A stretch of DNA of 32,000 bases from Zestosphaera tikiterensis. GTDB taxonomy: Archaea > Thermoproteota > Thermoprotei_A > Sulfolobales > NBVN01. The notes beneath the pieces are model-generated. The model saw only the letters and a program-made list of their open reading frames with translations, searched no databases and was not told the origin of the DNA. The stretch covers positions 60,001 to 92,000 of the forward strand of contig NBVN01000001.1 of NCBI GenBank assembly GCA_003056265.1, in the 5' to 3' direction. This document shows positions 1-14,219 of this stretch, in pieces (the first letter of the stretch is position 1; every line of letters starts with the position of its first letter). The position numbers and the translations under genes are program-made.

Positions 1-103
1 CCTTAACGTTTAAAACAAGCAATCTATCTCCATCCTTTAAATTAAGCTTTTTCCTCACACGACTAGGAATAACGATCCTACCTTTCCTATCAATAACCAC
101 CAT
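1..103 (-). CDS. AbrB/SpoVT-type antitoxin, N-terminal part (C-terminus lies beyond the window edge)
   Basis: Reverse-strand translation from ATG at 103 (alternative GTG at 109) gives MVVIDRKGRIVIPSRVRKKLNLKDGDRLLVLNVK. This is the looped-hinge swapped-hairpin signature (GRIVIP..VRK.L.L..GD.L) of AbrB/MazE/SpoVT antitoxins. Confidence 0.6.
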   Translation of the reverse strand, partial: MVVIDRKGRIVIPSRVRKKLNLKDGDRLLVLNVK

Positions 104-274
104 TTCCACAAATCCCACCTCTCCCACTATACTATAATGAAATATTGGCTATAAAACTTTACATATCTTGTTTTATTGCTTGTAGAATAAGTTTTACCGT
201 CGCAGAGTTACTAATCATTTCTCCGATCGTGCGGCAGACTCTACTTGACTTTATGTGACAGAGCGATATTAGTT

Positions 275-324
275 CTAGCCTCCGAAGCTAGTGGTCTGGG
301 GTTCAAATCCTGGCGGGCCCGCCA
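275..324 (+). tRNA. tRNA-Arg(CCG)-like 3' segment: anticodon arm, variable loop, T arm, 3' acceptor strand and encoded CCA, with no contiguous 5' half
   Basis: The anticodon stem CTAGC/GCTAG is perfect, with loop CTCCGAA (anticodon CCG). T loop is TTCAAAT, acceptor 3' strand CGGGCCC, discriminator G, then CCA. The T stem TGGGG/CCTGG has a G-G mismatch. The required 5' strand GGGCCCG and a D arm are absent upstream. Confidence 0.5.
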
Positions 325-690
325 CTCATATATCGCCTATATAGGGTTTTCTAGGGATCTAGGCTAGCTCAATGGCGCTATAGGGCTCAAGTCAAGTTAT
401 GCATCGGTAGACCGGACTCACTTTACTTTAAGACGGGCTTAAGCTCATACTAGTCCCACTTCCTATCTTAAAGTAAGGCTTTTTGCGATGTTTAGTGTCA
501 AGCTAGTGCTGATGAGTATTGTGATGGCTTCTGCCATGAATTATTGGAGAGTATTTATTTTGGCTGTAATTCCCGTATAAATTTAGAGAGGGCTGCGACA
601 TATTTGATGTTTGTGAGAAAGGTTTATAAACGTTGGTGTTTAAATATGTTAGGAATCCGCTTAGGCGATGGGAGCAATGCTCCAAGCCTA

Positions 691-849
691 GGTGGGGGTG
701 ATCAAAACATAGATGGGAGGGTCGTGCCGTTGCCCTCGACAGCCGCCCATGAACCTACGGGATGAGGTAAGCGAGCCCTCTAGGTGGAGGCGGAACTCCC
801 TAGATAAGACCATGAAAACACATAAAATGATTGAAATGAACATCTAGGG
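691..849 (+). repeat. GC-rich structured element, copy A of a dispersed five-member family
   Basis: Hand alignment to the reverse complement of 3102-3215 (gatgggag..tc.tg.cgtt...ctcgacag...catg). Colinear motifs shared with 23001-23118: cctacggga, gaactccc.agataa, catctag. The 5-bp hairpin GAGGG-11nt-CCCTC lies at 717-737. Confidence 0.5.
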
Positions 850-920
850 AGAAACGGCACTAATTAATTCAGGAGGGTATTTTAAGCGATTAGGTCTGTA
901 TTACTATCGGGGGTTAGCGT

Positions 921-1157
921 ATGAATGAGAGAGTACGTGAGTTCAGTGTTGTTATACTGGAAGATGAGAGCGGTGGCTATATCGCGGTTGTACCGGAGCT
1001 TCCGGGGTGTCATACACAGGGAGACAGCTTGGATGAAGTGATTAAAAATGTTAGGGAAGCTATAGAGCTTTATCTTGAGAGTCTCTCTGAGGAGGAGAAG
1101 AAGGAGTTATTGAGCCGTAGAGTTGTCGGTCTTCAGAGAGTGAAGGCGGTTGCCTAG
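921..1157 (+). CDS. hicB: HicB-family antitoxin (UPF0150)
   Basis: 78 aa. The run FSVVILEDESGGYIAVVPELPGCHTQGDSLDEVIKNVREAIELYLE is the canonical HicB N-terminal fold signature. It overlaps the downstream hicA by 8 nt. Confidence 0.85.
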   Translation: MNERVREFSVVILEDESGGYIAVVPELPGCHTQGDSLDEVIKNVREAIELYLESLSEEEKKELLSRRVVGLQRVKAVA

Positions 1158-1386
1158 AATAACACCCATAGATCCCTACGAATTCATTAAGTTGCTTAGT
1201 AAGCTAGGATTCAAGCCCATACGGCAACGAGGCTCACACGTGATACTGCTGAACGAACAAGGTGTTAGAATAGTAGTACCTGTACATCCAGGGAAGAAGA
1301 TTAAACCTGGACTCATAAGAATCATATTAACTGAAGCCGGGCTTACTAGGGAAAAATACTTCAAGCTCCTAGAAGAGGACTGCTAA
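1150..1386 (+). CDS. hicA: HicA-family mRNA interferase toxin
   Basis: 78 aa with a TTG start. Shows the YcfA/HicA hallmarks EFIKLLSKLGFKPIRQRGSHVIL...VVPVHPGKKIKPGL. Confidence 0.85.
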   Translation: MPRITPIDPYEFIKLLSKLGFKPIRQRGSHVILLNEQGVRIVVPVHPGKKIKPGLIRIILTEAGLTREKYFKLLEEDC

Positions 1387-1429
1387 ACTTCCTGTCTTCG
1401 TATTTAAAGTTCTTCATGTCTAAATGGTA

Positions 1430-1744
1430 TTATATTATTATTGTAAAACGCAAATAAGGCTTCCCAAAACAGGTAGGCCCTAGACGGTATTCCTTGCCTA
1501 TTATCACGCGTATGAGGATATTAGCGTCGACGAAGACCCTCCTCAAGATATAACTCCTCCGCCGAATCGAGCAACCCCACTCTGCCCTGGGGAGACCCTC
1601 TATGAACTTCCTTACCTTGCGATAATCATCCTCGCCGAATACTCTGCACTTGATAACAATATCTACTTCCTCACCCTCCCCAGCTCCAAAGGCTCTAATG
1701 GCTTGAGAACTCCTTTCGTATCTTACCCTTATGACCCTAGACAA
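1430..1744 (-). pseudogene. Decayed vapBC remnant: DUF104-type antitoxin with two compensating frameshifts, fused to a truncated PIN N-terminus
   Basis: Starts MSRVIRVRYE like the paralogs at 3678 and 8468. The conserved GVLKPLEPLEL block is readable only in a shifted frame, and the frame returns at EGEEVDIVI. The C-terminal part RRVFVDANILIRVIIGKE is a PIN N-terminus that then stops. Confidence 0.6.
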
Positions 1745-2028
1745 TTCTTACCCTCATCCATACACTATATGCATTGAGGACAATTAGTCTTTTTCAGTTT
1801 CCAGATTATCTTGATTGATGTTCTTGACGATAATCACCCATGCAGAGTGTTTCCATTTGATGGTTTCCTCTGGAGACATTGTTTATAAGTCCCGAGTCTT
1901 CGGAGCTGGTGATCCCGGATCCCGAATCTCGGCAGGCTCGCCATATCTCCACAATCCCCAAGTGATAGTATTTACTCATTTAGATTATATGGTATAAAAT
2001 AATGGATATACGTATTAGAGATAATATG

Positions 2029-2748
2029 TTACGTTTTATAAAACGTGTTCCTATCGATATGGAATCCGCATCTAGTTTTAATGTTATGGAAGCCCCTATA
2101 TAGGTAATAAGACCCATATAATTCCCCCAGATTAAATCCTACGTGAGTAATTATGGCTAGCAGAAGAGATCCTGTTTGCTTGCGTAAGTATCCAGCTATT
2201 ATGCTCATAAGGAACGCTATAGCCAAGATGAAGGCTTGTTGGGTTATTGGTGCATTATGGAAAGGCAGCATATGCATAAATGAGAAGAGTGTAGCCGATA
2301 CAATTATTGTGAGCCATGGATTCACATCATGTCTAAGCATATATCCAAGGAAAAGCCCTCTAAATAATGTTTCCTCACCTGTAGGGGCTAGAGCTAGAGC
2401 GATGAGGAAGTACTGGATAGGGTTCTGCTCTATTCCTGGTATAGGGGACTTAAATTGCTCCGAATTAGTTATGTGGAGCTCTGCGTATGCTAGCAAGGAT
2501 GCTATGCAGGTAGCCACCGTGAATACTGCAATCATTCTAGTGAGCCTGACTGCACGTAAACCCAGGATACTATAATCTTCTCGCAAAGGTAGCAAAATAA
2601 AGAGCGTCTGCATAACTGTAGTACCTACTAAAGGCACACCAATAATGGGCACGAGCACTACACAAGTTAGCACACTCAAAGCAAAAACAGCAAATAACAC
2701 CAGGGCACCTTTAATAATGTAGAGGGCTCCATGACATTTCATTCCCAT
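2029..2748 (-). CDS. CPBP-family intramembrane glutamic protease (CAAX protease/Abi family)
   Basis: Multi-TM protein with motifs EETLFRG, FSFMH and HVGFN. The ATG at 2748 (or 2742) lies 30 nt after the upstream PIN stop, whereas the longer ORF start at 2868 would overlap that gene. Confidence 0.8.
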   Translation of the reverse strand: MGMKCHGALYIIKGALVLFAVFALSVLTCVVLVPIIGVPLVGTTVMQTLFILLPLREDYSILGLRAVRLTRMIAVFTVATCIASLLAYAELHITNSEQFKSPIPGIEQNPIQYFLIALALAPTGEETLFRGLFLGYMLRHDVNPWLTIIVSATLFSFMHMLPFHNAPITQQAFILAIAFLMSIIAGYLRKQTGSLLLAIITHVGFNLGELYGSYYLYRGFHNIKTRCGFHIDRNTFYKT

Positions 2749-2777
2749 CTCCCTTACACTAAGCGTGATGATCGGGT

Positions 2778-3479
2778 CTATTCCTTTTGTGAAATAACTT
2801 TGAGCCATGGTACTCGCTTGAAGTCCTCGTCTAGTGTTGCTATAGCGTTTATCCCATGTTGCCTGCATGTTAATGCTATTATTGCGTCTGTAGGCATTAG
2901 ACCGTATCCCTCCATGTACTGGATTATCTCTCCTGGCTCTGCCGTTAGTGGTAATGTCGTAAAGAGCCTCAGTACAGGCCAGACATCGTTTTTGACTAAG
3001 CCTACGAGCCTCTCATCCCTCCCCGCTAGTAACTCCCTTATCCTCCTAGAGCTAAGTCTTGTTGTAAGCGTTTCCCAGACCACGGTATTCCGTGGTTTGG
3101 GTTAGCCCTTGGTGTGGATTCATTAGCTTCGCCCGCACCGCATGGGGCTCTGTCGAGCCTAACGCCATGAGGCTCCCATCTGATGGTGTTACATCGAACA
3201 TCATCCCCCAAACCCTCACATCATAACTGATCATAGGGTAGGAGATCAAAATTTCACACTATATCATCACTCAAGAAATTAAGAGTTATTCAGAATATTT
3301 AAGCCTTACGACATCCCAGAAACAGCCTTAGATAGCCGTATATGACCTCATCAACTACTAGTGGGGTTGATGTATCCAATAATTTCACGATTTTCAACTT
3401 CCTTTAGGAGCTTCTAGGCCCTATCATCTTGGCCGGCGAGGAACGCTAGTATGACGCTAGTGCCCACGAAAACCTTCAT
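2778..3479 (-). pseudogene. vapC: vapC (PIN-domain toxin) pseudogene, hit by several independent lesions
   Basis: The N-terminal fragment 3303-3479 reads MKVFVGTSVILAFLAGQDDRA*. The first catalytic Asp is replaced by Gly, an in-frame TAG sits at 3414-3416, and there is a frameshift near 3355-3362. The C-terminal fragment 2778-3101 (..LMPTDAIIALTCRQHGINAIATLDEDFKRVPWLKV) aligns with the intact paralog 7822-8274. About 210 nt of foreign sequence separates the two fragments. Confidence 0.65.
3092..3302 (-). mobile_element. MITE-like insertion (GC-rich element copy E plus an A/T-rich flank) splitting the vapC gene
   Basis: The two vapC fragments together account for nearly the whole length of the intact paralog. 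The intervening segment is non-coding and homologous to copy A. A 12-bp hairpin, CCCAGACCACGG-TATT-CCGTGGTTTGGG with one G-T pair, lies at 3074-3101 on the junction. Confidence 0.5.
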
Positions 3480-3678
3480 CCTCTATCTCCTCAAGAACCT
3501 CAAGAAGCTCTTCTCTCCTAATGTCGGGCCTGTGCTTTCTTACAATACCATAGAATTTGTCGTCAATTAACTCACTTGACCTTATAATTATCTGAACTTC
3601 CTCGCCCTCCTCAAGGTCAACAGGCTCAAGTGGCTTGAAAACACCTTTCTCATACCTAACCCTGATAACCCTAGACAT
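3457..3678 (-). CDS. vapB: DUF104-type VapB-like antitoxin (apparently intact, partner toxin decayed)
   Basis: MSRVIRVRYEKGVFKPLEPVDLEEGEEVQIIIR. The same N-terminus as the gene at 8271-8468 favours the ATG at 3678 over the upstream TTG at 3693. Its 3' end overlaps the vapC pseudogene start by 23 nt. Confidence 0.8.
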   Translation of the reverse strand: MSRVIRVRYEKGVFKPLEPVDLEEGEEVQIIIRSSELIDDKFYGIVRKHRPDIRREELLEVLEEIEDEGFRGH

Positions 3679-3900
3679 ATGGTTGCCACCCAACTATAAT
3701 GTATGGCTTTAAAAAGATTAAAGCATGTTACAGTAGAATAAACCTACCGATGAGGAACAACTAATCATTTTACTGACCATGTAGCATGGTTTAAGTGGTT
3801 TATAAGCAACTTAGCGATGAAGTTCTCCAGCCTGGAGAGCCGGTGTAGGTATTCACGTGCGGGTTCAACTTCCAACGGGTCCGCTATTATTTGTTAAGTC

Positions 3901-4410
3901 CTACTTTAGCTTTCTTAGGGCCTCGTTTATTATCTTATCAGACACTCTGAATCCGTATTCTTTTAACCCTCTTAGCGCTTGGACTGGTTTGCCTTTATCT
4001 ATGAGGCCTTTATCATAAGCCAGTCGTAGAAGACCTACTGTCCCTTTGTTTTTAACTCCATGGATTTTGCTTTAAGTCTTGCAATTCTATCGTCTAGGAT
4101 AACTGTACACTTATACTCAACAGCTAATGTTATTGCCTCCGACTCGCCCATGCCTAAAGGGTCGTGAAGGGCCTCTACTAGTGCCCTATCCCGTGGCGTC
4201 AAAACTTTTACCTTGCCTTGGCGTACAAGGTCTCCCAGCTCCTTTGAGCCAGGCTTGTTATGACCCTCTGCGACAACTTCCTCGTAAACTGCGTGAGGTA
4301 TAATTATCTCCCATACCAAGCGCTTCTATAATGTCTGTCATATTTACCTGTGCAAGTGCTATTATGGCGCTGGAATCTAATACTAGGCAGTGGTTCACCT
4401 TATTACTCAA
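3901..4410 (-). pseudogene. DUF3368/COG2405-type PIN toxin pseudogene (two frameshifts)
   Basis: Three consecutive frames together encode one PIN protein. They read LVLDSSAIIALAQVNMTDIIEALG (about 4322-4410), VWEIIIPHAVYEEV...ESEAITLAVEYKCTVILDD (4035-4319) and GTVGLLRLAYDKGLIDKGKPVQALRGLKEYGFRVSDKIINEALRKLK (3901-4040). The second shift falls in an A-rich run near 4046-4056. Confidence 0.65.
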
Positions 4411-4417
4411 TCCCTAG

Positions 4418-4660
4418 CTACTCTCGGAGCTCTTTAGCACTATAAGGATAGGCTGGTATCCCTCTCCTATGAAGCTCTACTAGGAAGTCATATAGGCTCA
4501 TCCCAGCCAGCTCAGCTGCACGCTCAACACTAACAACGCCCCTAAGGAATAAGTCAATCGCATAAGCTAGTCTAACATCCTTCTCGACATCCCCAACATA
4601 ATGAGAAGGTACCTTAACCTTAACCACCACTTCACGAGGCAACCTATCCCTCACTACCAT
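4418..4660 (-). CDS. UPF0175 (COG2886)-type antitoxin, cognate of DUF3368 PIN toxins
   Basis: 80 aa. The segment AIDLFLRGVVSVERAAELAGMSLYDFLVELHRRGIP is the typical UPF0175 HTH region. It lies immediately upstream of the PIN pseudogene. Confidence 0.7.
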   Translation of the reverse strand: MVVRDRLPREVVVKVKVPSHYVGDVEKDVRLAYAIDLFLRGVVSVERAAELAGMSLYDFLVELHRRGIPAYPYSAKELRE

Positions 4661-4765
4661 TAATATATGGTAACTCTTAAGTCCTTATAACCTCGTAGCC
4701 GGAGATAGCATATCCCATACATTACCCCTTAAGATATGAATAGATTAGAAATTGCCGTTCGTCGG

Positions 4766-5548
4766 TTATGGCTTGCATATCTGCCTGGCTAGCTCTATTT
4801 CTCGCAGCCTCTCCTCCGTTATCGGTTGTTGCGCCTTCTCGATGCACTCTCCTGTAGCTAGTAGCTGTGGTGAGATGCAATATCCTTTTTCTCTGTCATC
4901 CCATTCTACCAGTATCATGTAGCACGGAGTTTCAATTTCAACCTTGTTTGGAGGCTCTGAGTTGACGATCAAGTAGTGATGCTCACCTATGTAGAGAAGT
5001 GCGGCTTCGACCACTTTCTCTAAGCTAGCGGTACAGCATAATAGACGCCGAACCCGGATAGGTGAGAAAGGAGGCCTTAGATAGTTAGTATAGAATTCCC
5101 TAGGGTCTAACACCCTTACCCAGCGCTCCATCAGCTGCCAGATATCGAAGTCCCGCTTGTTCCAGGTAACTAGTATAGCTTGCTTAAACCCCTCCTCGTA
5201 ACGCAGGTGAAGCGCGCTCGCAACATACACAGCGTCGTCGGGATCTTTAACAAACCCCTGTGCCTCTGAGAGATATCTTGCAACCTTCTCGTTGGGAAGG
5301 GGTTTCACACGCTTTAATATAGCTTTAAGAGCTAGGCGTATCTCATACTCGCTTCTACCAGCCTTCCGCGCTATTTCCTCTGTGTGCTTTAGGATCTCAC
5401 TACTTAGGGCTACAGGGTAGAAGAAGGAGTAGATGATCGGAGCTAGGGAGACTATGTAGCGGTTGAGTCCCTGCTCCCGGATGAGTGCCGCTATAACCAC
5501 GTTGGCGTCAAGGACTACTGCTGCATAGCGCCTTTCAGCCTTGCCCAT
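4766..5548 (-). CDS. PIN-domain protein with an extra C-terminal extension of about 95 aa
   Basis: PIN acidic residues lie in VVLDANVVIAAL, DPDDAVYVASAL and VTWNKRDFD. Residues from about 165 to 260 (four Cys, EHHYLIVNSEPP..) match nothing I recognise. Confidence 0.75.
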   Translation of the reverse strand: MGKAERRYAAVVLDANVVIAALIREQGLNRYIVSLAPIIYSFFYPVALSSEILKHTEEIARKAGRSEYEIRLALKAILKRVKPLPNEKVARYLSEAQGFVKDPDDAVYVASALHLRYEEGFKQAILVTWNKRDFDIWQLMERWVRVLDPREFYTNYLRPPFSPIRVRRLLCCTASLEKVVEAALLYIGEHHYLIVNSEPPNKVEIETPCYMILVEWDDREKGYCISPQLLATGECIEKAQQPITEERLREIELARQICKP

Positions 5549-5751
5549 GCCTTCCTTGTCGCCTCATCGGCTATTTTGAGGGCGTCTTCCATTTCCAGCT
5601 TTGACTCCATAGACACGGCTTCTAACAGTAGTAGCGTCTCAGCAGCCTTTGCCAGCTCCTCAGCACTCACGCCCCGGGCCCTAGCGAGTTCTACAACCTC
5701 TCTAGGAAGAGGCACTTTGACAAACATTATCTTCTCACTCTCTTCACTCAT
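5515..5751 (-). CDS. Putative cognate antitoxin of the long PIN protein
   Basis: Small acidic helical protein MSEESEKIMFVKVPLPREVVELARARGVSAEELAKAAE. Its 3' end overlaps the PIN gene start. The ATG at 5751 is preferred over the GTG at 5763. Confidence 0.55.
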   Translation of the reverse strand: MSEESEKIMFVKVPLPREVVELARARGVSAEELAKAAETLLLLEAVSMESKLEMEDALKIADEATRKAWARLKGAMQQ

Positions 5752-5864
5752 CCCATACCCCACTATAACCTATAGTCCCAACACAATTAAAAACCTATCA
5801 AAGAAGACCATAGGTAGTTTCTCAATCAACTCTTCCCATAAGGTAAGGGCTACTCCCAGAGAAG

Positions 5865-6017
5865 TTGGGCCCACCGATCCGTGTTTCAAGGGAGATTGCT
5901 CGGTAGCTCGGGGTATCCCACACCACGGTACACAGGAGGCTCAAGCACATCAAGCAAGCACTTGAGGAAATAAACCCTGGCATCCCAGAAACACTAGTCA
6001 AGGAAGAAGAGGTGTAG
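5865..6017 (+). pseudogene. Fragment of a helix-turn-helix protein with an in-frame TAG
   Basis: The frame reads ..REIAR*LGVSHTTVHRRLKHIKQALEEINPGIPETLVKEEEV, an HTH recognition-helix pattern. The stop is at 5904-5906 and there is no convincing start. Confidence 0.3.
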
Positions 6018-6082
6018 CTAGAAGTGTAGAGCATCTTAGGGATATTAACCGGGGCACAGTAGAAGTATTATAGGGATGCTCT

Positions 6083-7423
6083 ATGTGTAGCTCACTACTG
6101 TCAATACCAGCACTAATACTGATATCTCTGCAACTACTAGTGCTACTCGCAACAATAGTAAATGCGGGGTCTATTGGGGTATCCGTGAAGTGGGTTAAAT
6201 ATATAAACCCAACAGACGGGGACGGCCAAGCTTTTGGGACATGCGTATTCGGTGACTACGTAGCTGCCTTAGGATCGACTGGGGGTAAACCATATGTAGC
6301 CCTGCTAAGTAAAAGCGATGGCAGCGTAGTGAGGGAATGGAAGTCGACCGATAGCTGGGCGGGATGGTTTATTAACTGTGTTTCGATCAATGGGAAGCTC
6401 TACGTTATTGGCAACCCAGGTATCTACGTATTCGATGCTGACCTCAATATTCTAGCAAATATTAAAGTCGTGGATTTATCAGACTATTTCTCGCTGGCAC
6501 ATGATGGGAAGGCACTATATGTAGGTGGTTGGGTTGGTGAAGACGTGAACGGAGACGGTGAAAAAGAGGCAGTTTGGCTTGTTGAGAAGAGGGATCCACG
6601 TGACCTCAGCCTCATATCCTCGAAGAAGATATACGTTGGCTCATGGAAGGGGGGGACGATATATGACATAGATGTGGAGCCCTTTACCGGCAGAATATGG
6701 ACTGTAGGGGGTTACGCAGATTCCAAGGATACGGAGCACTCGTTGATAGCGGTTCTCGACAGCGATCTTGAAGTCCTCAAAGTGATTGACTACCCTGATG
6801 GCAGTGAGGGATATGTGGGTGGGTTTAATGGCGTAGCTTTTGACGGTAAAGGATACGTCTACGCCTCAGGCATCCTTGGTATCGCTAAATTTAGCTTGGA
6901 TGGAGAGCTGGTAGCCGTAAATAGGGACGTTGAGAGAGCACCTAAGATTGTGTATGGCTACGACCACCTACATGCCTTCAGAGTTGAATATATTAAAGCC
7001 TGCTTGAGGCACGTACTATACATCTATGATACCAATTTAAGCCTAGTTAAGAAATACGTGTTAAGTGAGAGCATAGACGCGGACTCATACTTCAATGTTC
7101 ATGGTAGGCCAACGCTAGAGGAGAGCAACATATATGTAGTAAGCTTCGACAAAGCCCTAGGTGAAGGTAACCTGAGGTTTGTTGTGTACTTTCTACAAAT
7201 AGAGAGTACTCCAGCATCGGAGACTATGTCTACGGTAGCTACTACGTCGCCGACTGTAACGACTGCTGCAACCACGGGATTAATGCCTCAAGAAACATCT
7301 ACAGTAGCGACTACATCGGCTACTCAGGTATTGCCGGGTATACAACTAGGTGTGGCCCTAGCAGTAATAGGAGTCATAGCTGCAATAGCAACTGTTGCAG
7401 TATTCGTGCCCAGGAAGCGGTAG
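6083..7423 (+). CDS. Secreted, C-terminally anchored surface protein (beta-propeller-like repeats, Thr-rich stalk)
   Basis: N-terminal signal-like hydrophobic segment and repeated G..Y..G beta-strand motifs. A T/S-rich stalk (STVATTSPTVTTAATT..STVATTSAT) is followed by a terminal TM helix and PRKR. Confidence 0.75.
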   Translation: MCSSLLSIPALILISLQLLVLLATIVNAGSIGVSVKWVKYINPTDGDGQAFGTCVFGDYVAALGSTGGKPYVALLSKSDGSVVREWKSTDSWAGWFINCVSINGKLYVIGNPGIYVFDADLNILANIKVVDLSDYFSLAHDGKALYVGGWVGEDVNGDGEKEAVWLVEKRDPRDLSLISSKKIYVGSWKGGTIYDIDVEPFTGRIWTVGGYADSKDTEHSLIAVLDSDLEVLKVIDYPDGSEGYVGGFNGVAFDGKGYVYASGILGIAKFSLDGELVAVNRDVERAPKIVYGYDHLHAFRVEYIKACLRHVLYIYDTNLSLVKKYVLSESIDADSYFNVHGRPTLEESNIYVVSFDKALGEGNLRFVVYFLQIESTPASETMSTVATTSPTVTTAATTGLMPQETSTVATTSATQVLPGIQLGVALAVIGVIAAIATVAVFVPRKR

Positions 7424-7677
7424 GCATCTTTGCATCCCTAAAACCAATATTTTTATAGTGCTGAATCCCTCCCTGTGAAACCATGGTAACTCCTGACTCC
7501 TCATGCCCCCTACCCTAAAATCCCTCTGATTCGCTGTCTAAGCTAAGGGTTAGAACAGGGCTCTCGAGACAAATGACACTATAGTATTAATGCTATCAGC
7601 GGAACCTCTATACGAACTCTTAACTTTACTCGGATTAAGTATCTCTTTGAATGATTAACCTTAACACCACTATACGA

Positions 7678-7703
7678 GTTTAAATCCTGGCGGGTCCGCC
7701 ACT
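7678..7703 (+). repeat. 26-nt partial copy of the tRNA-like 3' end at 301-326 (att-like direct repeat)
   Basis: gttTaaatcctggcgggTccgccact versus gttCaaatcctggcgggCccgccact, 24 of 26 identical. Weaker similarity continues about 20 nt downstream. Confidence 0.55.
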
Positions 7704-7821
7704 TAAATCCCACTATATGAATGTTCCCCCTTTCTCCAGTAAGGCCGTGACTTATAGTTCTGATGAGAACTAGGTTGATTCCAGCTTCATCATTGATTAT
7801 CTCAGCAGATATATTGACGGT

Positions 7822-8274
7822 CTAGGGCGCAACTCTTAGCCAAGGAATCCTCTTGAAGTCCTCGTCGAAAGTCAGAATTGTGTTTATGCCGTAGTGCTTA
7901 CATGTTAAAGCTATTTGTGCATCATTAGGAAGTAGCTTAAAATTTTGAATTATTTGAAGATATTCATCGTAGTCAAAGTAATCATTTATTATCTTAGTAT
8001 TCAAATCTTTTAGGAAAGAATCTATTGCGTCTATTACTTCCCTAGGATACCCCTGTTTTGAAATTAATCTACTTAAACCATACCCTCCCTTAACTATGCC
8101 CTTCTGTCTATAATACTCATACGTTGCAACATATAGGGCTTCATTAATTGCGATCCCCGAAATCGTAAAATGTGAGTCGCTATACGCTTCTAAGATTTGC
8201 TCAGCTAAGTCACTCTTCTCAGTTTTGAGTAAAATGCTGAGTATGAAGCTAGTATCAATGTAAGCTAGCCTCAT
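7822..8274 (-). CDS. vapC: PIN-domain toxin VapC (intact)
   Basis: 150 aa. The four PIN acidic positions lie in YIDTSFIL, INEALY, NDAQIALT and TFDEDF. It overlaps the upstream antitoxin by 4 nt. Confidence 0.85.
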   Translation of the reverse strand: MRLAYIDTSFILSILLKTEKSDLAEQILEAYSDSHFTISGIAINEALYVATYEYYRQKGIVKGGYGLSRLISKQGYPREVIDAIDSFLKDLNTKIINDYFDYDEYLQIIQNFKLLPNDAQIALTCKHYGINTILTFDEDFKRIPWLRVAP

Positions 8275-8468
8275 TGAATATGAGCCTCTTCCTCGATCTC
8301 TAGTAACTCCTTAATCGATGACCTTCCTAAAATCCCTCGATACTTCTTGAGTACTTTCCTTATATCACGTCTAATAGCGATTAGGACCTCCTCTCCCTCC
8401 TCTAGATCTACTGGTTCTAGAGGTTTGAGAGCACCATTTTCATAACGTACACGTATGACCTTAGACAC
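8271..8468 (-). CDS. vapB: DUF104-type VapB-like antitoxin
   Basis: MSKVIRVRYENGALKPLEPVDLEEGEEVLIAIR, a paralog of the gene at 3457-3678. Confidence 0.85.
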   Translation of the reverse strand: MSKVIRVRYENGALKPLEPVDLEEGEEVLIAIRRDIRKVLKKYRGILGRSSIKELLEIEEEAHIQ

Positions 8469-8610
8469 CTAACTACACCCAAGTATTATATATAATTTTG
8501 AGATTAAAACACGTTGTAATAGAGTAAGTTTACCATTATAGAATTTCTTATCATACCTCCTAAAATGTTGCTGACTTTACTTGACTTCATGTAACAGAGT
8601 GATATGGGTT

Positions 8611-8660
8611 CCAGCCTCTGGAGCCGGAGGTCCCGGGTTCAAACCCCGGCGGGCTCACCA
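8611..8660 (+). tRNA. Second tRNA-like 3' segment (anticodon-loop CTG, perfect T arm, encoded CCA) with no contiguous 5' half
   Basis: T arm CCGGG-TTCAAAC-CCCGG, acceptor 3' strand CGGGCTC, discriminator A, then CCA. The anticodon stem CCAGC/GCCGG has one A-C mismatch and the loop is CTCTGGA. The 5' strand GAGCCCG is absent upstream. It is a paralog of 275-324, 38 of 50 positions identical by my count. Confidence 0.5.
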
Positions 8661-8888
8661 TATACATTCCTTGGCATTTAGGAAGGTATATTGGGAATTA
8701 GTAACAATCGCTTCATTTAAAGTTCGGTTGATACTACTAGATATATCTAGCCGTCCTATAAGGGAACATAGTATTCACTACCCTAGAGACTGGCACCACA
8801 TTATTTCTACTTTATAGAATCAGAGGCGAGTTGAAGATTAGAAGATTAAGGGAGTAGAGGCAGTTAAGCCTTCAACCGCCCCCTGCAG

Positions 8889-11219
8889 TTAACCCCTATC
8901 AGCGGTTCCATACGACTCTATTATCTGGTAGAGCAACCTCATGCCTTGTGGGAGTTTTTCGACTTCATTTTTATGTAGCTTATTTCCAAGGATTGCCTTC
9001 ATTAGGGCTAGCTCCTCATTGCTGATTCCTTTGTAGTTTCCTTCGATAGCTTGTTTTGCTTTCTCCCTTGCTGATTCTATGTTGCCCATGAGGTAGTCTA
9101 AGACGGCCTCTTCCCAAAAGAGGTCGCCCTTTACGGCGTCCGAGAATTTGTTTCTTTTTGCTTCTTCCAGCTTGGTCCTAGCTGCCTTAAGATCTCCTTC
9201 CAATAGTGAGGTAAATATGGAGAGGGGTGAGGCTTGGACTTTAATGGTATCCCTTAGATCTCCTGGTAGCAGGTCTGAAACCTCCTCTATCTCCTCAAGT
9301 GTCTTCTTTAACTCGCTTATTTTACCTAGGTAGGCTTGCATAACGCCTATATGGACTAATGCGACAGCGTAATTGCCGAAATCATCTTTCTCTAACTCAA
9401 GTTGAGCTTCTCTCATCGAGTTATCCAACGCCCTCTCCATGTCATTTTCGTAGAATGCCAGTATTGTATCGCTCGCAAGTATAGTTGGTTCTATCTCCTT
9501 CTTCAGTTCAGATGGTAGCTTCTGGAATAAGGACTTTGATTCCTCTAATATCCTTCTTCCCTCATCCAAATTCCCGATCTTCATGAGCATGCCTGCCAAT
9601 AGGGCTGCGACCCTCGTATATAGGAACCTGTTGGATCTCAAGCCAACCAGGTGCCTTTTTATTATATCAACGCCCTTTCGGAGGTCTATTTCTTTAGTTG
9701 TGATTTCTACTAATGTTCTTTCTATTGCAAGCAGGGATTTTTGCTGTGTAGTTAGACCCTCACATTGTTGGAGTTTCTCAAGTACGCTATGGTAGAGGCC
9801 GAAACAGCAGGTCATCCAGCTCGAACCATGAAGAAGACGTTTCTCTATGATTGGGATGGCGTCTTTTATAAGACAGTTATCGGCCATTAGTAGAAGACCC
9901 CGCATCCTCTGCCTGATATCCGGGTGCTGGTTAAGCGCGAGAGCTACCAGTTCTACTAGGTGCTTTAGTCTCGGCTTGTTTGCAACTTTGGGGAGCCCCT
10001 CTACCCCCTCCCTAACCTTAACATCTTCACCTAATATCTCTATAAGGCCTAATCTTTCAAGCATGTTTAAACGCTTTAAACAAGCGGTTTGCCTTAAGGA
10101 GAGTATATTGCAGAGTATTTCAATAGGAAGTACCCCACCGCCGGCGATTAACAGTTCAAGTATGAGCTTGTCGTTCTCATCTATTACCTCCCCAATTTTC
10201 GACTCATAGTAGGATGCCACAACCCTGTTTATACATTCTGTTAGAGGTAGTCCTGCTGACTTATACAGGTTTATTATGCCGTGTATGAGGAGCGGTATCC
10301 CCCCGCTTAGCTTGGCTATTTGCAAGATGTCGTGCTGGGATAGATTAGTGCTCAGATCCTTTGAGAGCTTCTTCGTTAGCTCTATTGCTTCATTAGGAGG
10401 AAGTGGCTTGACCTCTATATCTAGTACTTTTCCTTTCCAGTAAGGGAGTTCCCTCTCTTTCAACTTCGATATTATGAAGACCCTCGCAGGGTATTCGATC
10501 CTCTCAACTAGGGATAATATGTATTCCTTGACCTGCTTGTTGACATCGTGGAAGTCGTCGAATACCAGAACCGTCGAATGTTCGTTTAAGAGGTTAGCAA
10601 GGGTACGGATATCGCTATTCATTACGGTCCTGACATCGAGGCCTGTTATGGTTGAAATGAGGAGTGTCAGATTTAGCTTGAGTGTCTCAGCCGTGTCAGA
10701 TACGATGGGTACATACCAGTATACTGGCTCTCTCTTCCTATAGCGCTTGATGTACCAGGCAGCAAGGCTCGATTTTCCAATCCCAGGGAGTCCCCATAAA
10801 TGTATTATTGGGACGTTGGATGAGTGTATGGTGTATAGCTCTTCTTCCCTGCCAACTAGCTCCTCACATTCTGGTATCACTGTATTCCTCAGCCTGATGA
10901 ACTCCCTGTGTTTTTCCTCATCTGAGAATGATACTTCTAGGGCCCCTCCATCAAATCTAATGCTAAATTCTTTTATATTTAACTCATGTAATTTAACATT
11001 TTTTTCTCCAACCCTCTTCCAGCAACTCCTTACTATCCCCAATTGCTCAAGGAGTTTGAGACGCCTTGAAATAGAGGATTCATTCAGTTTGAGAACGTCG
11101 GCGATTTCCCTGGTGTAGGAGGGTTTTATGCTTAATAACAGTAGAATTTGAATATTTATTTTATTTCTTATAGAGTTAATTATGATGTCAAGCTTCTCTG
11201 ATTCAGGTGACCGTGTCAA
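8889..11219 (-). CDS. STAND-class NTPase with an N-terminal ArsR-like wHTH and a C-terminal TPR-like helical repeat region
   Basis: The wHTH is YTREIADVLKLNESSISRRLKLLEQLGIV. Walker A is GLPGIGKSS and Walker B is VLVFDDFHD. A second wHTH-like segment (LKRLNMLERLGLIE) and about 300 aa of helical repeats follow. TTG start. Confidence 0.8.
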   Translation of the reverse strand: MTRSPESEKLDIIINSIRNKINIQILLLLSIKPSYTREIADVLKLNESSISRRLKLLEQLGIVRSCWKRVGEKNVKLHELNIKEFSIRFDGGALEVSFSDEEKHREFIRLRNTVIPECEELVGREEELYTIHSSNVPIIHLWGLPGIGKSSLAAWYIKRYRKREPVYWYVPIVSDTAETLKLNLTLLISTITGLDVRTVMNSDIRTLANLLNEHSTVLVFDDFHDVNKQVKEYILSLVERIEYPARVFIISKLKERELPYWKGKVLDIEVKPLPPNEAIELTKKLSKDLSTNLSQHDILQIAKLSGGIPLLIHGIINLYKSAGLPLTECINRVVASYYESKIGEVIDENDKLILELLIAGGGVLPIEILCNILSLRQTACLKRLNMLERLGLIEILGEDVKVREGVEGLPKVANKPRLKHLVELVALALNQHPDIRQRMRGLLLMADNCLIKDAIPIIEKRLLHGSSWMTCCFGLYHSVLEKLQQCEGLTTQQKSLLAIERTLVEITTKEIDLRKGVDIIKRHLVGLRSNRFLYTRVAALLAGMLMKIGNLDEGRRILEESKSLFQKLPSELKKEIEPTILASDTILAFYENDMERALDNSMREAQLELEKDDFGNYAVALVHIGVMQAYLGKISELKKTLEEIEEVSDLLPGDLRDTIKVQASPLSIFTSLLEGDLKAARTKLEEAKRNKFSDAVKGDLFWEEAVLDYLMGNIESAREKAKQAIEGNYKGISNEELALMKAILGNKLHKNEVEKLPQGMRLLYQIIESYGTADRG

Positions 11220-12482: not shown

Positions 12483-14219
12483 TCAACCCCCTATTTGAAA
12501 TGTTTGAACGATTTGATCCACAGCAACTATCGTGTCCTGGTTAGCGACTGCTTGGTCAATGATATAGAATACTGCTAAACCATACCCCCGCACGTTCGTG
12601 TAGCGCGCTATTGCCATGTCTCCCGTGCCAAGTTTATATACAACGGTCTCTGCTGGAATATTTCCTAGGGCGCCGTTGGGGTTATCGGTTGTCACCTGAT
12701 ATCCCTTGTAGTATTCGTTGAAGACTGACTCTATGCTAGACTTTATATCGTTCCCGCTGAGGCTTCGACTCCATATTATTACTACTAGGATCATACCGTC
12801 TGGACTGGACAAGTCTACTTCGTAAGCATTTTCGTAAGCATAGTTCTCGGCTTCCCAATCCGCGGGCACAGTAATGGACCAGGGTAGATCGCCATAGGGA
12901 TTCACAATCTTTTTCGTGTTGGTTGGTGGCTGTGGTTGTGGTGGTTGAGGTTGTGGAGGTTGCGGCTGAGGCGGTTGAGGTTGCGGTGGCTGTGGCTGTG
13001 GTGGCTGTGGTTGTGGCGGTTGCGGCTGTGGTTGTGGAATCCCTCCTCCCCCTTGTCCTCCCCCTGCTTGTCCTCCCGCACCAGGCATAACACCAGGCAT
13101 AACGTATCCCCACTGTTCTAGAACGTTAGGCGGTAGTTCCGGCAGTTCCGGCGGTACTATTCCGGATGTTTGCGCTTTAACAACATCTAATATGAGGTGT
13201 GGGCCTTGGAGAGCTTCTTGAACTACTCTGGCACCTGTTTCAACAGCCTGCTGGAAACTAACCTTACCTCCTAGAGTGGTGCTCTCGATTGGCAGGAGTT
13301 GCCCGCTTGGGAGCACTATTATGGGTATCGCATGTCCCGGCATGAGAACTATGTAAGCTTTTAAGTTTTGACTCATCGCCACAGCAGCGAGGAATATTGA
13401 GGTGTCTATGCATGTACCGCTCCTATCCCGGATCACGTCTCTAGGGTATTTAACCCATTGAGATGCTTTACCTGACCAGAATGCTTCGGATTCTGTTTGG
13501 TATGTAATCCCGTTATATACGCTGAAGATCCACACCGCTTCGAGGAATGTGAGCGCTTCCTGATCGTTCAATGCCGCACCAGCACCCATACCTGTTAGCT
13601 TATTCGCCATAGCCGCATATCTTTCTACCACCGGGTCTTTCGGTGTGACCCACGCGGCTAATAGTTTATAGTTGCTGAATATATCTTGAAAGCTCCCAGT
13701 GTTCTCTTCCGGCGGTAGACCCGAGAATATGAAGTCGCGGCTTCCAAGAATGTTTATAGGCTTTGTTTTTGTTTCGGTAACTGGCTCACCGTCTGATTTC
13801 GTCTTGTACTCTATTTTCACGTAGAGCTTTCCTGGTGTGGCGGTCTGAAGGTTTGGCGCTTGTAAGAGTACGGGATAGTACAGATCTACTATCGCTCCAC
13901 CTGGAGGGATTAGCTTGTATTCCTTTGGTTCACTCCAGTCTGTTAGACCCTCGATTTTATAAGTTATTTTAACGTTATATAATGGGCCTGTTCCACTATT
14001 TTTAATGACTGTTTTAGCCACCCAATACCCTAGGCTTGGATTTCCATAAACTTTGTAAACCGCTGTCATGAAACTATCTATACTATATACTTTAACCTCT
14101 AAACGTCCTTCTCCTTCTCCTCCTCTAGCTATGTTCGGCAATGCCGCTAGAACTATTCCTAATACGAGAATCGCTACTCCTATAATTGTAAACATTTTAG
14201 CATTCTTCTCTATAGGCAA
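12483..14219 (-). CDS. Membrane-anchored transglutaminase-like cysteine protease-fold protein with a PQ-repeat linker
   Basis: N-terminal TM helix. The core GTCIDTSIFLAAVAMS...LMPGHAIPIIVL matches the Cys...His arrangement of transglutaminase-like domains. A Gly-rich stretch, a PQPQP repeat tract and a C-terminal beta-rich domain follow. Confidence 0.8.
   Translation of the reverse strand: MPIEKNAKMFTIIGVAILVLGIVLAALPNIARGGEGEGRLEVKVYSIDSFMTAVYKVYGNPSLGYWVAKTVIKNSGTGPLYNVKITYKIEGLTDWSEPKEYKLIPPGGAIVDLYYPVLLQAPNLQTATPGKLYVKIEYKTKSDGEPVTETKTKPINILGSRDFIFSGLPPEENTGSFQDIFSNYKLLAAWVTPKDPVVERYAAMANKLTGMGAGAALNDQEALTFLEAVWIFSVYNGITYQTESEAFWSGKASQWVKYPRDVIRDRSGTCIDTSIFLAAVAMSQNLKAYIVLMPGHAIPIIVLPSGQLLPIESTTLGGKVSFQQAVETGARVVQEALQGPHLILDVVKAQTSGIVPPELPELPPNVLEQWGYVMPGVMPGAGGQAGGGQGGGGIPQPQPQPPQPQPPQPQPPQPQPPQPQPPQPQPPQPQPPTNTKKIVNPYGDLPWSITVPADWEAENYAYENAYEVDLSSPDGMILVVIIWSRSLSGNDIKSSIESVFNEYYKGYQVTTDNPNGALGNIPAETVVYKLGTGDMAIARYTNVRGYGLAVFYIIDQAVANQDTIVAVDQIVQTFQIGG
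12923..13037 (-). repeat. In-frame tandem 15-nt repeat encoding about eight PQPQP units
   Basis: The plus strand reads as iterated ggYtgNggYtgNggN units. The copies differ mainly at synonymous positions. Confidence 0.9.

Follow-up and report, generated by a model that had tools for sequence, protein, structure and literature searches.

In bacteria, CIMEs are non-autonomous elements flanked by att sites, and integron cassette arrays are rich in toxin-antitoxin (TA) genes. In Crenarchaeota, degenerate remnants located at tRNA genes are common (PMC3718332). Split tRNAs are known in Desulfurococcales, and where split-tRNA leaders have been described they are short and rich in G and C, with a 14-bp G/C stem (PMC3218864). 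The initial annotation of the stretch of DNA studied here (32 kb, analysed as a whole and referred to as the window) recorded two tRNA 3'-half loci and offered both split-tRNA halves and element-borne att copies as explanations. Our analysis indicates that these two loci, together with three further copies, are probably non-functional attR-type relics of the 3' part of tRNA-Arg, left by serial insertion.

Locus 1 (188-324) and locus 2 (8525-8660) had been described as homologous, and indeed they contain a direct repeat (193-324 versus 8529-8660) of 132 nt with 74% identity. Alignment with MAFFT placed the start of the homology near 184 and 8518 and its end exactly after the CCA. Over the 132 ungapped positions 34 mismatches were found (23 transitions and 11 transversions), 12 of which lie in the last 50 nt of the repeat, in agreement with the 38 identities out of 50 counted earlier for the tRNA-like part. 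A conserved core of 28 nt occurs twice in the window, compared to 0.00 occurrences expected by chance. The lack of a 5' half was confirmed as well: the acceptor strand GRGCCCG is absent upstream of either locus, and elsewhere in the window, outside the loci, this motif has only two unrelated minus-strand matches. No tRNA was called in the whole window by ARAGORN or by Rfam at the gathering threshold. The Rfam tRNA model gave only partial, sub-threshold matches of 18.4 (locus 1) and 22.1 bits (gathering score 29). The 9 nt GACAGAGCG just upstream of the tRNA-like part match the D-loop/D-stem 3' side of tRNA-Arg, so the tRNA-derived part may reach slightly further 5' than first described, and from its sequence GACAGAGCG may be a true remnant of this region. 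A D arm that Infernal aligned within the leader was treated as spurious; its D-stem 3' strand is unconserved and unpaired in both copies.

The number of copies had been underestimated. A search (nhmmer) with a profile built from intact tRNA-Arg 3' halves revealed five copies instead of two, all on the + strand and within the first 8.7 kb, and none in the other 23 kb of the window:

275-324, + strand: relic 1, tRNA-Arg positions 27-76 including CCA (E=1e-12); anticodon loop CTCCGAA (CCG), G-G mismatch in the T stem
1893-1943, + strand: relic 2, tRNA-Arg(TCG)-type, strongly decayed (E=1.2e-06)
3827-3886, + strand: relic 3, variable region with an insertion, 3' end degenerate (GCTA) (E=1.2e-03)
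7673-7701, + strand: relic 4, restricted to the stretch from the T loop through CCA, AGTTTAAATCCTGGCGGGTCCGCCA (model positions 24-50, E=8e-04)
8611-8660, + strand: relic 5 (locus 2), CCG-type with five transitions including anticodon CCG to CTG (E=2.7e-12); anticodon stem with an A-C mismatch; I. aggregans has its intact tRNA-Arg(TCG) at this site

The copies are thus same-orientation direct repeats of a tRNA 3' part that bound inserted DNA, and relic 4 marks the left boundary of the last cassette. Relic 2 has an orthologue in a relic of I. aggregans, at L137 6419-6466. The stem mismatches of the two loci are as first reported. The assignment of locus 2 to tRNA-Gln, on the other hand, has to be abandoned: compared to a crenarchaeal tRNA-Arg(CCG) 3' half it differs by five transitions, so its CTG is a CCG with a C-to-T change, and a pair of Arg and Gln isoacceptors is incorrect because both copies derive from tRNA-Arg. 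An intact tRNA-Arg(CCG) is present in the Ignisphaera MAG L047. The T stem of locus 2 (CCGGG/CCCGG) is unlike that of the local tRNA-Arg(TCG) (GGGGG/CCCCT); a plain duplication of the target therefore cannot account for this copy, most of which must be element-borne. Pairwise, the copies in the window differ at 9-15 of 47 positions, compared to 0-2 for the intact tRNA-Arg(TCG) 3' halves of I. aggregans and the two relatives L144 and L145. The anticodon stem of locus 1 (CTAGC/GCTAG) is fully paired, which could hint at some constraint.

A related AT-rich leader is found 5' of four of the five copies. Directly next to each leader a minus-strand antitoxin gene begins, and the distance from every full copy to an antitoxin gene start is 60-150 nt. 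The leaders are of two types:

188-274, + strand: leader type A, copy 1, non-coding, 41% GC; box CTAATCAT at 211-218, 56 nt 5' of the tRNA part
1745-1892, + strand: leader type B, with TTTCCAGATTATC at 1798-1810, GATAATCA at 1829-1836, and TTTATAAG
1850-1877: inverted repeat TTTCCA..TGGAGA of the type B leader
3725-3826, + strand: leader type A, copy 3, with GTAGAATAAA at 3733-3742 and CTAATCAT at 3761-3768, 58 nt 5' of the tRNA part
8525-8610, + strand: leader type A, copy 4, 31% GC; CTTATCAT at 8547-8554, 56 nt 5' of the tRNA part

The antitoxin gene that leader copy 1 abuts is of the MazE/AbrB type (MazE_antitoxin, 7.7e-09) and starts at or before 127. The leaders of the two loci have a GC content of 31-41% (33-37% in the last 30 nt), and next to the tRNA part, on its 5' side, is a TATA-like stretch rich in A/T. 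Of the TATA-like box ATTATAGA in the initial annotation, the copy at locus 2 stands; the box is absent from locus 1 and lacks 3 nt in L140, the closest relative. The type B leader is homologous to leaders of Staphylothermus (L052), Hestiella (L101) and I. aggregans (L137). Searches with exact leader patterns gave no match in GTDB representative genomes, no match in viral contigs (IMG/VR, two different patterns) and 12 matches in metagenomes, all of them unrelated chance matches. With the leader absent from these viral contigs and GTDB representatives, no free element is known. A derivation of the leader from part of an SSV-type integrase gene was rejected: both copies contain stops in all six frames, which argues against a partitioned int gene of this type, and their substitutions lack 3-periodicity (12/8/14).

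The first part of the window (1-8500) is an island of TA modules and pseudogenes, to the right of which lies chromosomal flank:

921-1157, + strand: HicB, in cassette 325-1744
1150-1386, + strand: HicA, in the same cassette
1430-1744, - strand: decayed AF2212-like antitoxin ORF, in the same cassette
2778-3693, - strand: TA module directly upstream of leader copy 3, with a PIN fragment (2778-3083) and an AF2212-like antitoxin (3457-3693)
4418-5548, - strand: UPF0175 antitoxin (4418-4660) and PIN_2 toxin (4766-5548)
7822-8468, - strand: PIN toxin (7822-8274) and AF2212-like antitoxin (8271-8468)
8661-8888, + strand: chromosomal flank, orthologous to the sequence 3' of the intact tRNA-Arg(TCG) in I. 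aggregans
8889-11219, - strand: ArsR/ATPase gene of 776 aa, next after the flank

Among the ORFs of 1-8500, a Pfam scan found only TA families, CPBP-protease families or no families, and the ORFs of 1-8700 include no integrase or integrase fragment. A search for the left flank with a 42-aa antitoxin fragment gave no candidates, and contigs bearing HicA start near window position 783. In Staphylothermus L052, the DNA between an intact tRNA-Arg and its partial copy encodes a pair homologous to that at 7822-8468 (36% and 60% identity).

The gene of 776 aa to the right of locus 2 is 85% identical to its counterpart in I. aggregans DSM 17230. In that genome an intact tRNA-Arg(TCG), identified by ARAGORN, occupies the site of locus 2 and is followed by the same flank as in the window. 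Homology between the two genomes begins inside the tRNA, at the anticodon stem, and runs downstream; the upstream part is replaced by the leader. In L140, with a neighbouring protein that is 95% identical, the copy has lost 1 nt of its anticodon loop and combines locus-1-like with locus-2-like bases as a mosaic; its tRNA part has diverged by ~16% compared to ~4% for the leader. A succession in which an intact tRNA-Arg is followed by a TA operon of ~1 kb, the leader and a partial copy of the tRNA is seen again in Staphylothermus and in further Desulfurococcales MAGs; Staphylothermus L052, L037 and L042 are examples. In L042 the leader type of copies 1, 3 and 5 follows a MazE-type antitoxin, and the TA operon is oppositely oriented relative to the relic. 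I. aggregans itself carries a relic (L137), and the type B leader is conserved across these genera. In two relatives (L144 and L145) the TYW2/Trm5 orthologues are followed by an intact tRNA-Arg(TCG) and then by unrelated downstream DNA, indicating that the site is variable. No Pfam families, and so no integrase, were seen beside the intact tRNA-Arg in these two.

The second alternative of the initial annotation, element-borne att copies, is in agreement with the intact tRNA of I. aggregans, the five same-strand copies and the same architecture elsewhere. In such a history a tRNA-Arg gene of an Ignisphaera-like crenarchaeon would have served as a repeated insertion site. Each insertion would rebuild an intact tRNA at its left junction and leave at its right junction a partial copy of roughly positions 27-76 plus CCA. 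On the 5' side of this partial copy would lie the leader, as the right-end arm of the DNA that was inserted. Serial insertion would push older junctions downstream, yielding an array of partial copies on the same strand, separated by small cassettes that are mostly TA operons. The insertions were presumably site-specific events of the tyrosine-recombinase type, and to the left of the window the array probably begins with an intact tRNA-Arg. Further cassettes would lie in between, and the TYW2/Trm5 methyltransferase gene and tRNA-Thr(AGT) would come before this tRNA-Arg(TCG), as they do in I. aggregans (L137). Since an insertion array separated by small cassettes would give the leader the place of a conserved att-proximal arm of a cassette family, we take it to be such a non-coding arm and not a trans-splicing RNA leader.

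It might be argued that one old junction, consisting of a TA operon, a leader and a partial tRNA, was copied within the island by segmental duplication or gene conversion. The AF2212/PIN modules beside copies 3 and 5 (2778-3693 and 7822-8468) are indeed paralogous, sharing repeat families D4, D7 and D9, and the mosaic copy of L140 suggests gene conversion between copies. However, antitoxins that share one leader type differ in fold: those at copy 1 and in L042 are MazE-type, those at copies 3 and 5 AF2212-type. Copy 2 has a different leader type (B) that is common to other genera. Moreover, single cassettes between an intact tRNA-Arg and a partial copy are found independently in Staphylothermus, L037 and L042, and the short copy at 7673-7701 is the last cassette's own left boundary. 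Duplication as the general explanation is therefore considered unlikely.

Less probable still is the first alternative of the initial annotation, in which the loci are 3' halves of split, trans-spliced tRNAs with a leader that pairs with the trailer of a 5' half and a joining site of the bulge-helix-bulge type. The trailer of the separate 5' half would then be complementary to the leader stretch ...TACTTGACTT.... The conserved leader, the lack of a contiguous 5' half, the occurrence of split tRNAs in Desulfurococcales and the paired anticodon stem of locus 1 all fit with this reading. The only nearby complement of the leader, however, is a 9-mer at 389-397, which was paired manually with 243-251 over 9 bp and could not be extended to a longer helix or to bulge-helix-bulge geometry. 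With 31-41% GC the leaders do not resemble the known G/C-rich ones, and the tRNA part diverges no more slowly than the leader. Purifying selection on an intact tRNA part is not observed: stem mismatches are uncompensated, an Arg-type body carries an anticodon mutated to CTG, and L140 combines the indel in its anticodon loop with a partly deleted TATA-like box. The orthologous site in I. aggregans holds an intact tRNA-Arg, and five same-strand copies fit an insertion array rather than gene halves.

Hardly any weight is likewise given to a functional tRNA-like non-coding RNA or regulatory element of the adjacent TA operons, in which leader and tRNA-like part would be transcribed and would act on the TA system or its promoter. 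The constant proximity of full copies to antitoxin gene starts, the conserved boxes and inverted repeats in the leader and the TATA-like stretch next to the tRNA part could be taken to favour such a function. Yet unrelated antitoxin families share one leader type, which argues against an antitoxin operator, and the TA operon of L042 has the opposite orientation. The tRNA-like part also decays freely, and folding gave no support: the consensus fold of the two loci, at -16.9 kcal/mol and from two sequences, did not convincingly recover the cloverleaf arms, and shuffled versions of the 301-nt region fold at least as well (z = 0.63). A permuted tRNA was rejected, as locus 1 is followed by a D-arm-like TAGCTCAATGGCGCTA at 365-380 with no acceptor strand complementary to CGGGCCC, the helix with 389-397 stops at 9 bp and nothing comparable follows locus 2.

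With serial insertion at tRNA-Arg as the preferred explanation, the loci are best annotated as tRNA-Arg pseudogenes or att relics and not as split tRNA-Arg and tRNA-Gln halves. This label guards against wrongly reporting new split tRNAs from Ignisphaera-like archaea. The window would represent a tRNA-Arg gene that has acted as a repeated landing site, building a TA island. The presence of a conserved non-coding arm with single TA operons beside tRNA-Arg copies in several genera points to a possible, testable route for the spread of TA systems in hyperthermophilic archaea.

Compared to the split tRNAs of Nanoarchaeum equitans, Caldivirga maquilingensis and the Desulfurococcales Aeropyrum, Thermosphaera and Staphylothermus, the loci share a tRNA 3' portion without a contiguous 5' half, a conserved non-tRNA sequence 5' of this portion and a hyperthermophilic crenarchaeal host of the same broad order. 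They differ in having an AT-rich leader of ~86 nt instead of a short G/C-rich one (PMC3218864), and also in their defective stems, mutated anticodon, intact gene at the orthologous site, lack of a bulge-helix-bulge partner and lack of purifying selection on the tRNA part. The att duplications made by archaeal tyrosine recombinases (SSV-type, pNOB8-type and the 'gene capture' remnants of Sulfolobales) likewise consist of ~50-nt repeats of a tRNA 3' part, from anticodon stem to CCA (PMC8371274, PMC3718332). Further similarities are a tRNA-Arg gene as target, an intact tRNA at one end in comparable loci, degenerate remnants with accessory and TA genes, and a site that varies between strains. Unlike these systems, the array has no integrase gene or int(N)/int(C) fragment among the ORFs of 1-8700, its units are very small (~1-1.6 kb, often a single TA operon), and a conserved non-coding arm, not int coding sequence, lies beside att. 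The one mildly novel feature is the combination of small size, a missing integrase and a conserved arm in the cassettes.

With CIMEs and integron arrays the window shares same-orientation, small, integrase-less cassettes that are bounded by a repeated sequence resembling a recombination site, many of them with TA operons. In the window, however, the repeated site is a tRNA 3' part plus arm and not attC, mobility is putative, and no integron integrase, attI or other recombinase was identified. The GATTATC/GATAATCA boxes and TTTCCAG repeats are found at both cassette ends, at a fixed distance of 55-59 nt from the tRNA part. It may tentatively be speculated that leader and tRNA-Arg 3' part together form the recombination site of a previously undescribed family of integrase-less cassettes of ~1 kb, mostly a single TA operon each, that are mobilised in trans and, throughout Desulfurococcales (Ignisphaera, Staphylothermus, Hestiella and others), build up in tandem at tRNA-Arg genes, the boxes and repeats serving as arm sites of the recombinase. 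The support for such mobile cassette arrays would be comparative, consisting of the recurrence of single cassettes. If this idea is true, the array would be an archaeal counterpart, anchored at tRNA genes, of the cassette arrays of integrons or CIMEs.

A repeat search of the window revealed a 132-nt direct repeat of 74% identity (193-324 versus 8529-8660), and alignment with MAFFT placed the onset of similarity between locus 1 and locus 2 near 184/8518 and its end exactly at the encoded CCA. As an ungapped pair the two loci differ at 34 of 132 positions, by 23 transitions and 11 transversions. Twelve of these differences lie in the last 50 nt, reproducing the 38/50 identity that the initial annotation reported for the tRNA-like part. 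The most conserved stretch is not this tRNA part but a 28-nt leader core, TACTTGACTTYATGTRACAGAGYGATAT, in which the two loci differ at 3 positions; the window has two occurrences of the core, where chance predicts 0.00. No 5' strand GGGCCCG or GAGCCCG was found upstream of either locus, and the stem defects listed earlier were present in both, confirming two homologous loci that lack a 5' half. ARAGORN called no tRNA in the whole 32 kb and Rfam gave no match in the window at gathering thresholds. At relaxed thresholds the Rfam tRNA model showed partial matches scoring 18.4 and 22.1 bits, short of the gathering score (29).

Scanning of GTDB representative genomes with a T-arm/acceptor pattern yielded many crenarchaeal tRNA-Arg genes with the common 3' half CCGGCCTCCGGAGCCGGAGGTCCCGGGTTCAAATCCCGGCGGGCCCG. 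Locus 2 differs from it by five transitions, one of which makes the anticodon CTG from CCG. Locus 2 is a mutated tRNA-Arg copy and not the tRNA-Gln (CTG) it had been taken for. A profile built from eight intact tRNA-Arg 3' halves, run on the window by nhmmer, gave five significant matches, all on the plus strand and all within the first 8.7 kb. Both copies of the initial annotation were real; the copies at 1893-1943, 3827-3886 and 7673-7701 had been missed.

tRNA-Arg 3'-part copies and plus-strand leaders
275-324, plus strand: copy 1 (locus 1), nhmmer E = 1e-12; leader type A starting at 188
1893-1943, plus strand: copy 2, nhmmer E = 1.2e-06; leader type B at 1745-1892
3827-3886, plus strand: copy 3, nhmmer E = 1.2e-03; leader type A at 3725-3826
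7673-7701, plus strand: copy 4, nhmmer E = 8e-04, T loop to CCA only
8611-8660, plus strand: copy 5 (locus 2), nhmmer E = 2.7e-12; leader type A starting at 8525

A related AT-rich, non-coding leader (31-41% GC) precedes four of the five copies, with a common box, (G/C)(A/T)TAATCA or CTTATCA, 55-58 nt ahead of the tRNA part. Every leader directly adjoins the start of a minus-strand antitoxin gene, within a dense island of toxin-antitoxin modules and fragments (1-8500) that further encodes a CPBP protease and a secreted protein. The island yielded no integrase.

Toxin-antitoxin features of the island
At or before 127, minus strand: MazE/AbrB-type antitoxin, abutted by the leader at 188
921-1386, plus strand: HicB/HicA
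1430-1744, minus strand: decayed AF2212-like antitoxin, abutted by the leader at 1745
3457-3693, minus strand: AF2212-like antitoxin, abutted by the leader at 3725
4418-5548, minus strand: UPF0175/PIN_2
8271-8468, minus strand: AF2212-like antitoxin, abutted by the leader at 8525
Within 1-8500: three AF2212-like/PIN modules, one intact and two decayed

Leader type B is recognisably kept in the window, Staphylothermus, Hestiella and I. aggregans, with the pattern GTTTCCAGATTATC...GATAATCA...TTTCCAGTTGATGGTTTCCTCTGGAAACAT...TTTATA. Since one leader type occurs with antitoxins of different folds, the neighbouring tRNA-derived site is a likelier reason for leader conservation than toxin-antitoxin regulation. 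Derivation of the leader from an SSV-type integrase gene was rejected, as stops occur in all frames.

Some further features of the window were recorded. At 420-485 a strong hairpin of 13 bp, CTTTACTTTAAGA...TCTTAAAGTAAGG, precedes TTTTT and lies beside a weak C/D-box snoRNA-like Rfam match (snoR53Y, 478-553, 20.8 bits, E=0.52); these features may represent a small RNA or a terminator. A 578-aa membrane-anchored protein (12483-14219, minus strand) carries a long (PQ)n/PQPQPPQ tract from 15-nt tandem repeats (12916-13053); no Pfam family matches it, and it is conserved in I. aggregans. A 566-aa AAA_5 (dynein-related/McrB-like) ATPase overlaps a 450-aa protein without Pfam family (26431-29452, minus strand), and the two may form a McrBC-like defence pair.

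Directly to the right of locus 2 lies a 776-aa ArsR/ATPase gene, with an orthologue of 85% identity in Ignisphaera aggregans DSM 17230 and one of 95% on a metagenome contig (L140). At the position equivalent to locus 2, I. aggregans harbours an intact tRNA-Arg(TCG), downstream of which the sequence matches the window flank (...CCTTGGCATTTAGG...ATTGGGAA.TTAGTAACAATCGCTTCATTTAAA...GGTTGATACTACTAGATATAT...). In a three-way alignment the likeness between the window and I. aggregans runs from the tRNA anticodon stem onward. Upstream of that stem I. aggregans has the tRNA 5' half, preceded by a TYW2/Trm5 methyltransferase gene and tRNA-Thr; in the window, the leader and toxin-antitoxin island take their place. 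This shared 3' side with a different 5' side identifies locus 2 as the right-hand junction of DNA that entered a tRNA-Arg gene. In its T stem locus 2 is unlike the local tRNA-Arg(TCG), so most of the copy must have come with the inserted DNA and not from the target. Two relatives (TYW2 orthologues 88% and 81% identical) also have an intact tRNA-Arg(TCG) after TYW2, and the DNA beyond it is unrelated to I. aggregans or the window; this site is a variable point of insertion. A CPBP (Rce1-like) protease region with an adjacent tRNA-Arg relic (window 1796-2736, I. aggregans contig 5626-6565) lies on the opposite side of the 579/249/776-aa gene cluster in I. aggregans, indicating rearrangement between the two genomes.

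The same architecture was found in other genomes. A Staphylothermus MAG (L052) has, in order, an intact tRNA-Arg(TCG), a minus-strand PIN/AF2212 operon, a leader of 160 nt and a partial copy of tRNA-Arg from about position 28 onward (spacing 1006 bp). Its PIN/AF2212 proteins are homologous to the pair at 7822-8468 (36% and 60% identity), and the unit is collinear throughout with window 7677-8660 (spacing 959 bp). The motifs GATTATC/GATAATC and CCAGTAA/TTTCCAG recur at both ends of this ~1-kb cassette in the two genera (window 7702-7830 and 8469-8610; L052 2439-2560 and 3236-3395) and could be candidate protein-binding (arm) sites. In a second Desulfurococcales MAG (L037) an intact tRNA-Arg(CCG) is followed by minus-strand ORFs of 79 and 179 aa, read as a putative UPF0175/PIN-like pair, and by a partial copy 965 bp on. 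In a third (L042) an AF2212/PIN operon and a partial copy accompany an intact tRNA-Arg(CCG); a second relic there, with leader type A beside a MazE-type antitoxin, corresponds to locus 1. Other Thermoproteota MAGs (contigs L017 and L046, Caldivirga sp. RSNS23; L131, Desulfurococcus sp.; L072) also bear orphan partial copies of the tRNA-Arg 3' part, whose upstream sequences are unrelated, and such relics appear widespread.

The data are best explained by successive insertions into a tRNA-Arg gene within its 3' part, a behaviour known from archaeal integrative elements. Each insertion would restore the gene at the left junction and leave a partial copy with an arm of the incoming DNA at the right junction, and later insertions would displace earlier junctions downstream. 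That the copies are att relics, one of the two alternatives first offered, is quite probable given the intact I. aggregans tRNA-Arg at the site and the same flank. The units may be leftovers of larger elements that kept their toxin-antitoxin genes while the rest was deleted. That they form a family of non-autonomous cassettes is a tentative and rather doubtful proposal, worth testing because units of a single operon turn up next to intact tRNA-Arg genes in several genera; no free form was found in IMG/VR by exact leader-pattern search.

The other alternative first offered was that of split-tRNA halves. Intact tRNA-Arg(TCG) 3' halves of I. aggregans and the two TYW2-bearing relatives differ mutually at 0-2 positions; between any two partial copies, or between a partial copy and an intact gene, 5-15 of 47 positions differ, and the partial copies have unpaired stem positions. 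The L140 counterpart of locus 2 (6938-7090, minus strand), compared with window 8525-8660 and 188-324, lacks one nucleotide of the anticodon loop and carries seven substitutions over 50 nt. Its 86-nt leader has about 3 substitutions and one 3-nt deletion, which takes out part of the TATA-like ATTATAGA box of the initial annotation, so that this candidate promoter is not conserved. Several L140 changes match the locus 1 state, including a block of locus-1-like bases (CCGAAGCTAG), which suggests gene conversion between repeated copies. Copy 2 is orthologous to the I. aggregans relic beside the same CPBP-like region, with a tRNA part that is barely alignable. The anticodon stem of locus 1 is fully paired (CTAGC/GCTAG); it takes just one compensating step, along a route through states known from other copies (CCAGC/GCTGG in the intact L042 gene, then CCAGC/GCTAG in L140), and weighs little against decay. 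In view of the stem defects, the divergence and the L140 indels, the copies do not fit a functional tRNA half. Known split tRNAs of Desulfurococcales have strong, correctly spaced promoters, short G/C-rich leaders forming a canonical bulge-helix-bulge and a long G/C stem with the partner trailer, and intact bodies, and they supply an otherwise missing isoacceptor (PMC3218864). The window leaders, in contrast, are AT-rich and the bodies defective; with an unconserved candidate promoter and an intact gene at the site in relatives, the split-tRNA reading was rejected.

A permuted tRNA at locus 1 was considered because of a D-arm-like sequence and a leader-complementary 9-mer just downstream, and rejected: no acceptor strand matches, and the helix stops at 9 bp. 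The 9-mer AAGTCAAGT (389-397) lies 65 nt downstream of locus 1 and complements leader-core ACTTGACTT (243-251) exactly, but the pairing is not extendable and locus 2 shows nothing equivalent. The window contains 14 one-mismatch matches versus 8.9 expected, and the pairing is probably due to chance.

The main value of the analysis is that a false split-tRNA call is avoided and a possibly mobile toxin-antitoxin cassette family is flagged. Sulfolobus has documented cases both of degenerate remnants at tRNA genes and of vapBC pairs gained by horizontal transfer (PMC3718332). The phenomenon in the window is the same in kind as the already known archaeal tRNA-gene att relics. Unlike textbook archaeal cases, the units here are very small, lack an integrase and carry a conserved non-coding arm with repeated boxes beside the tRNA-derived site.
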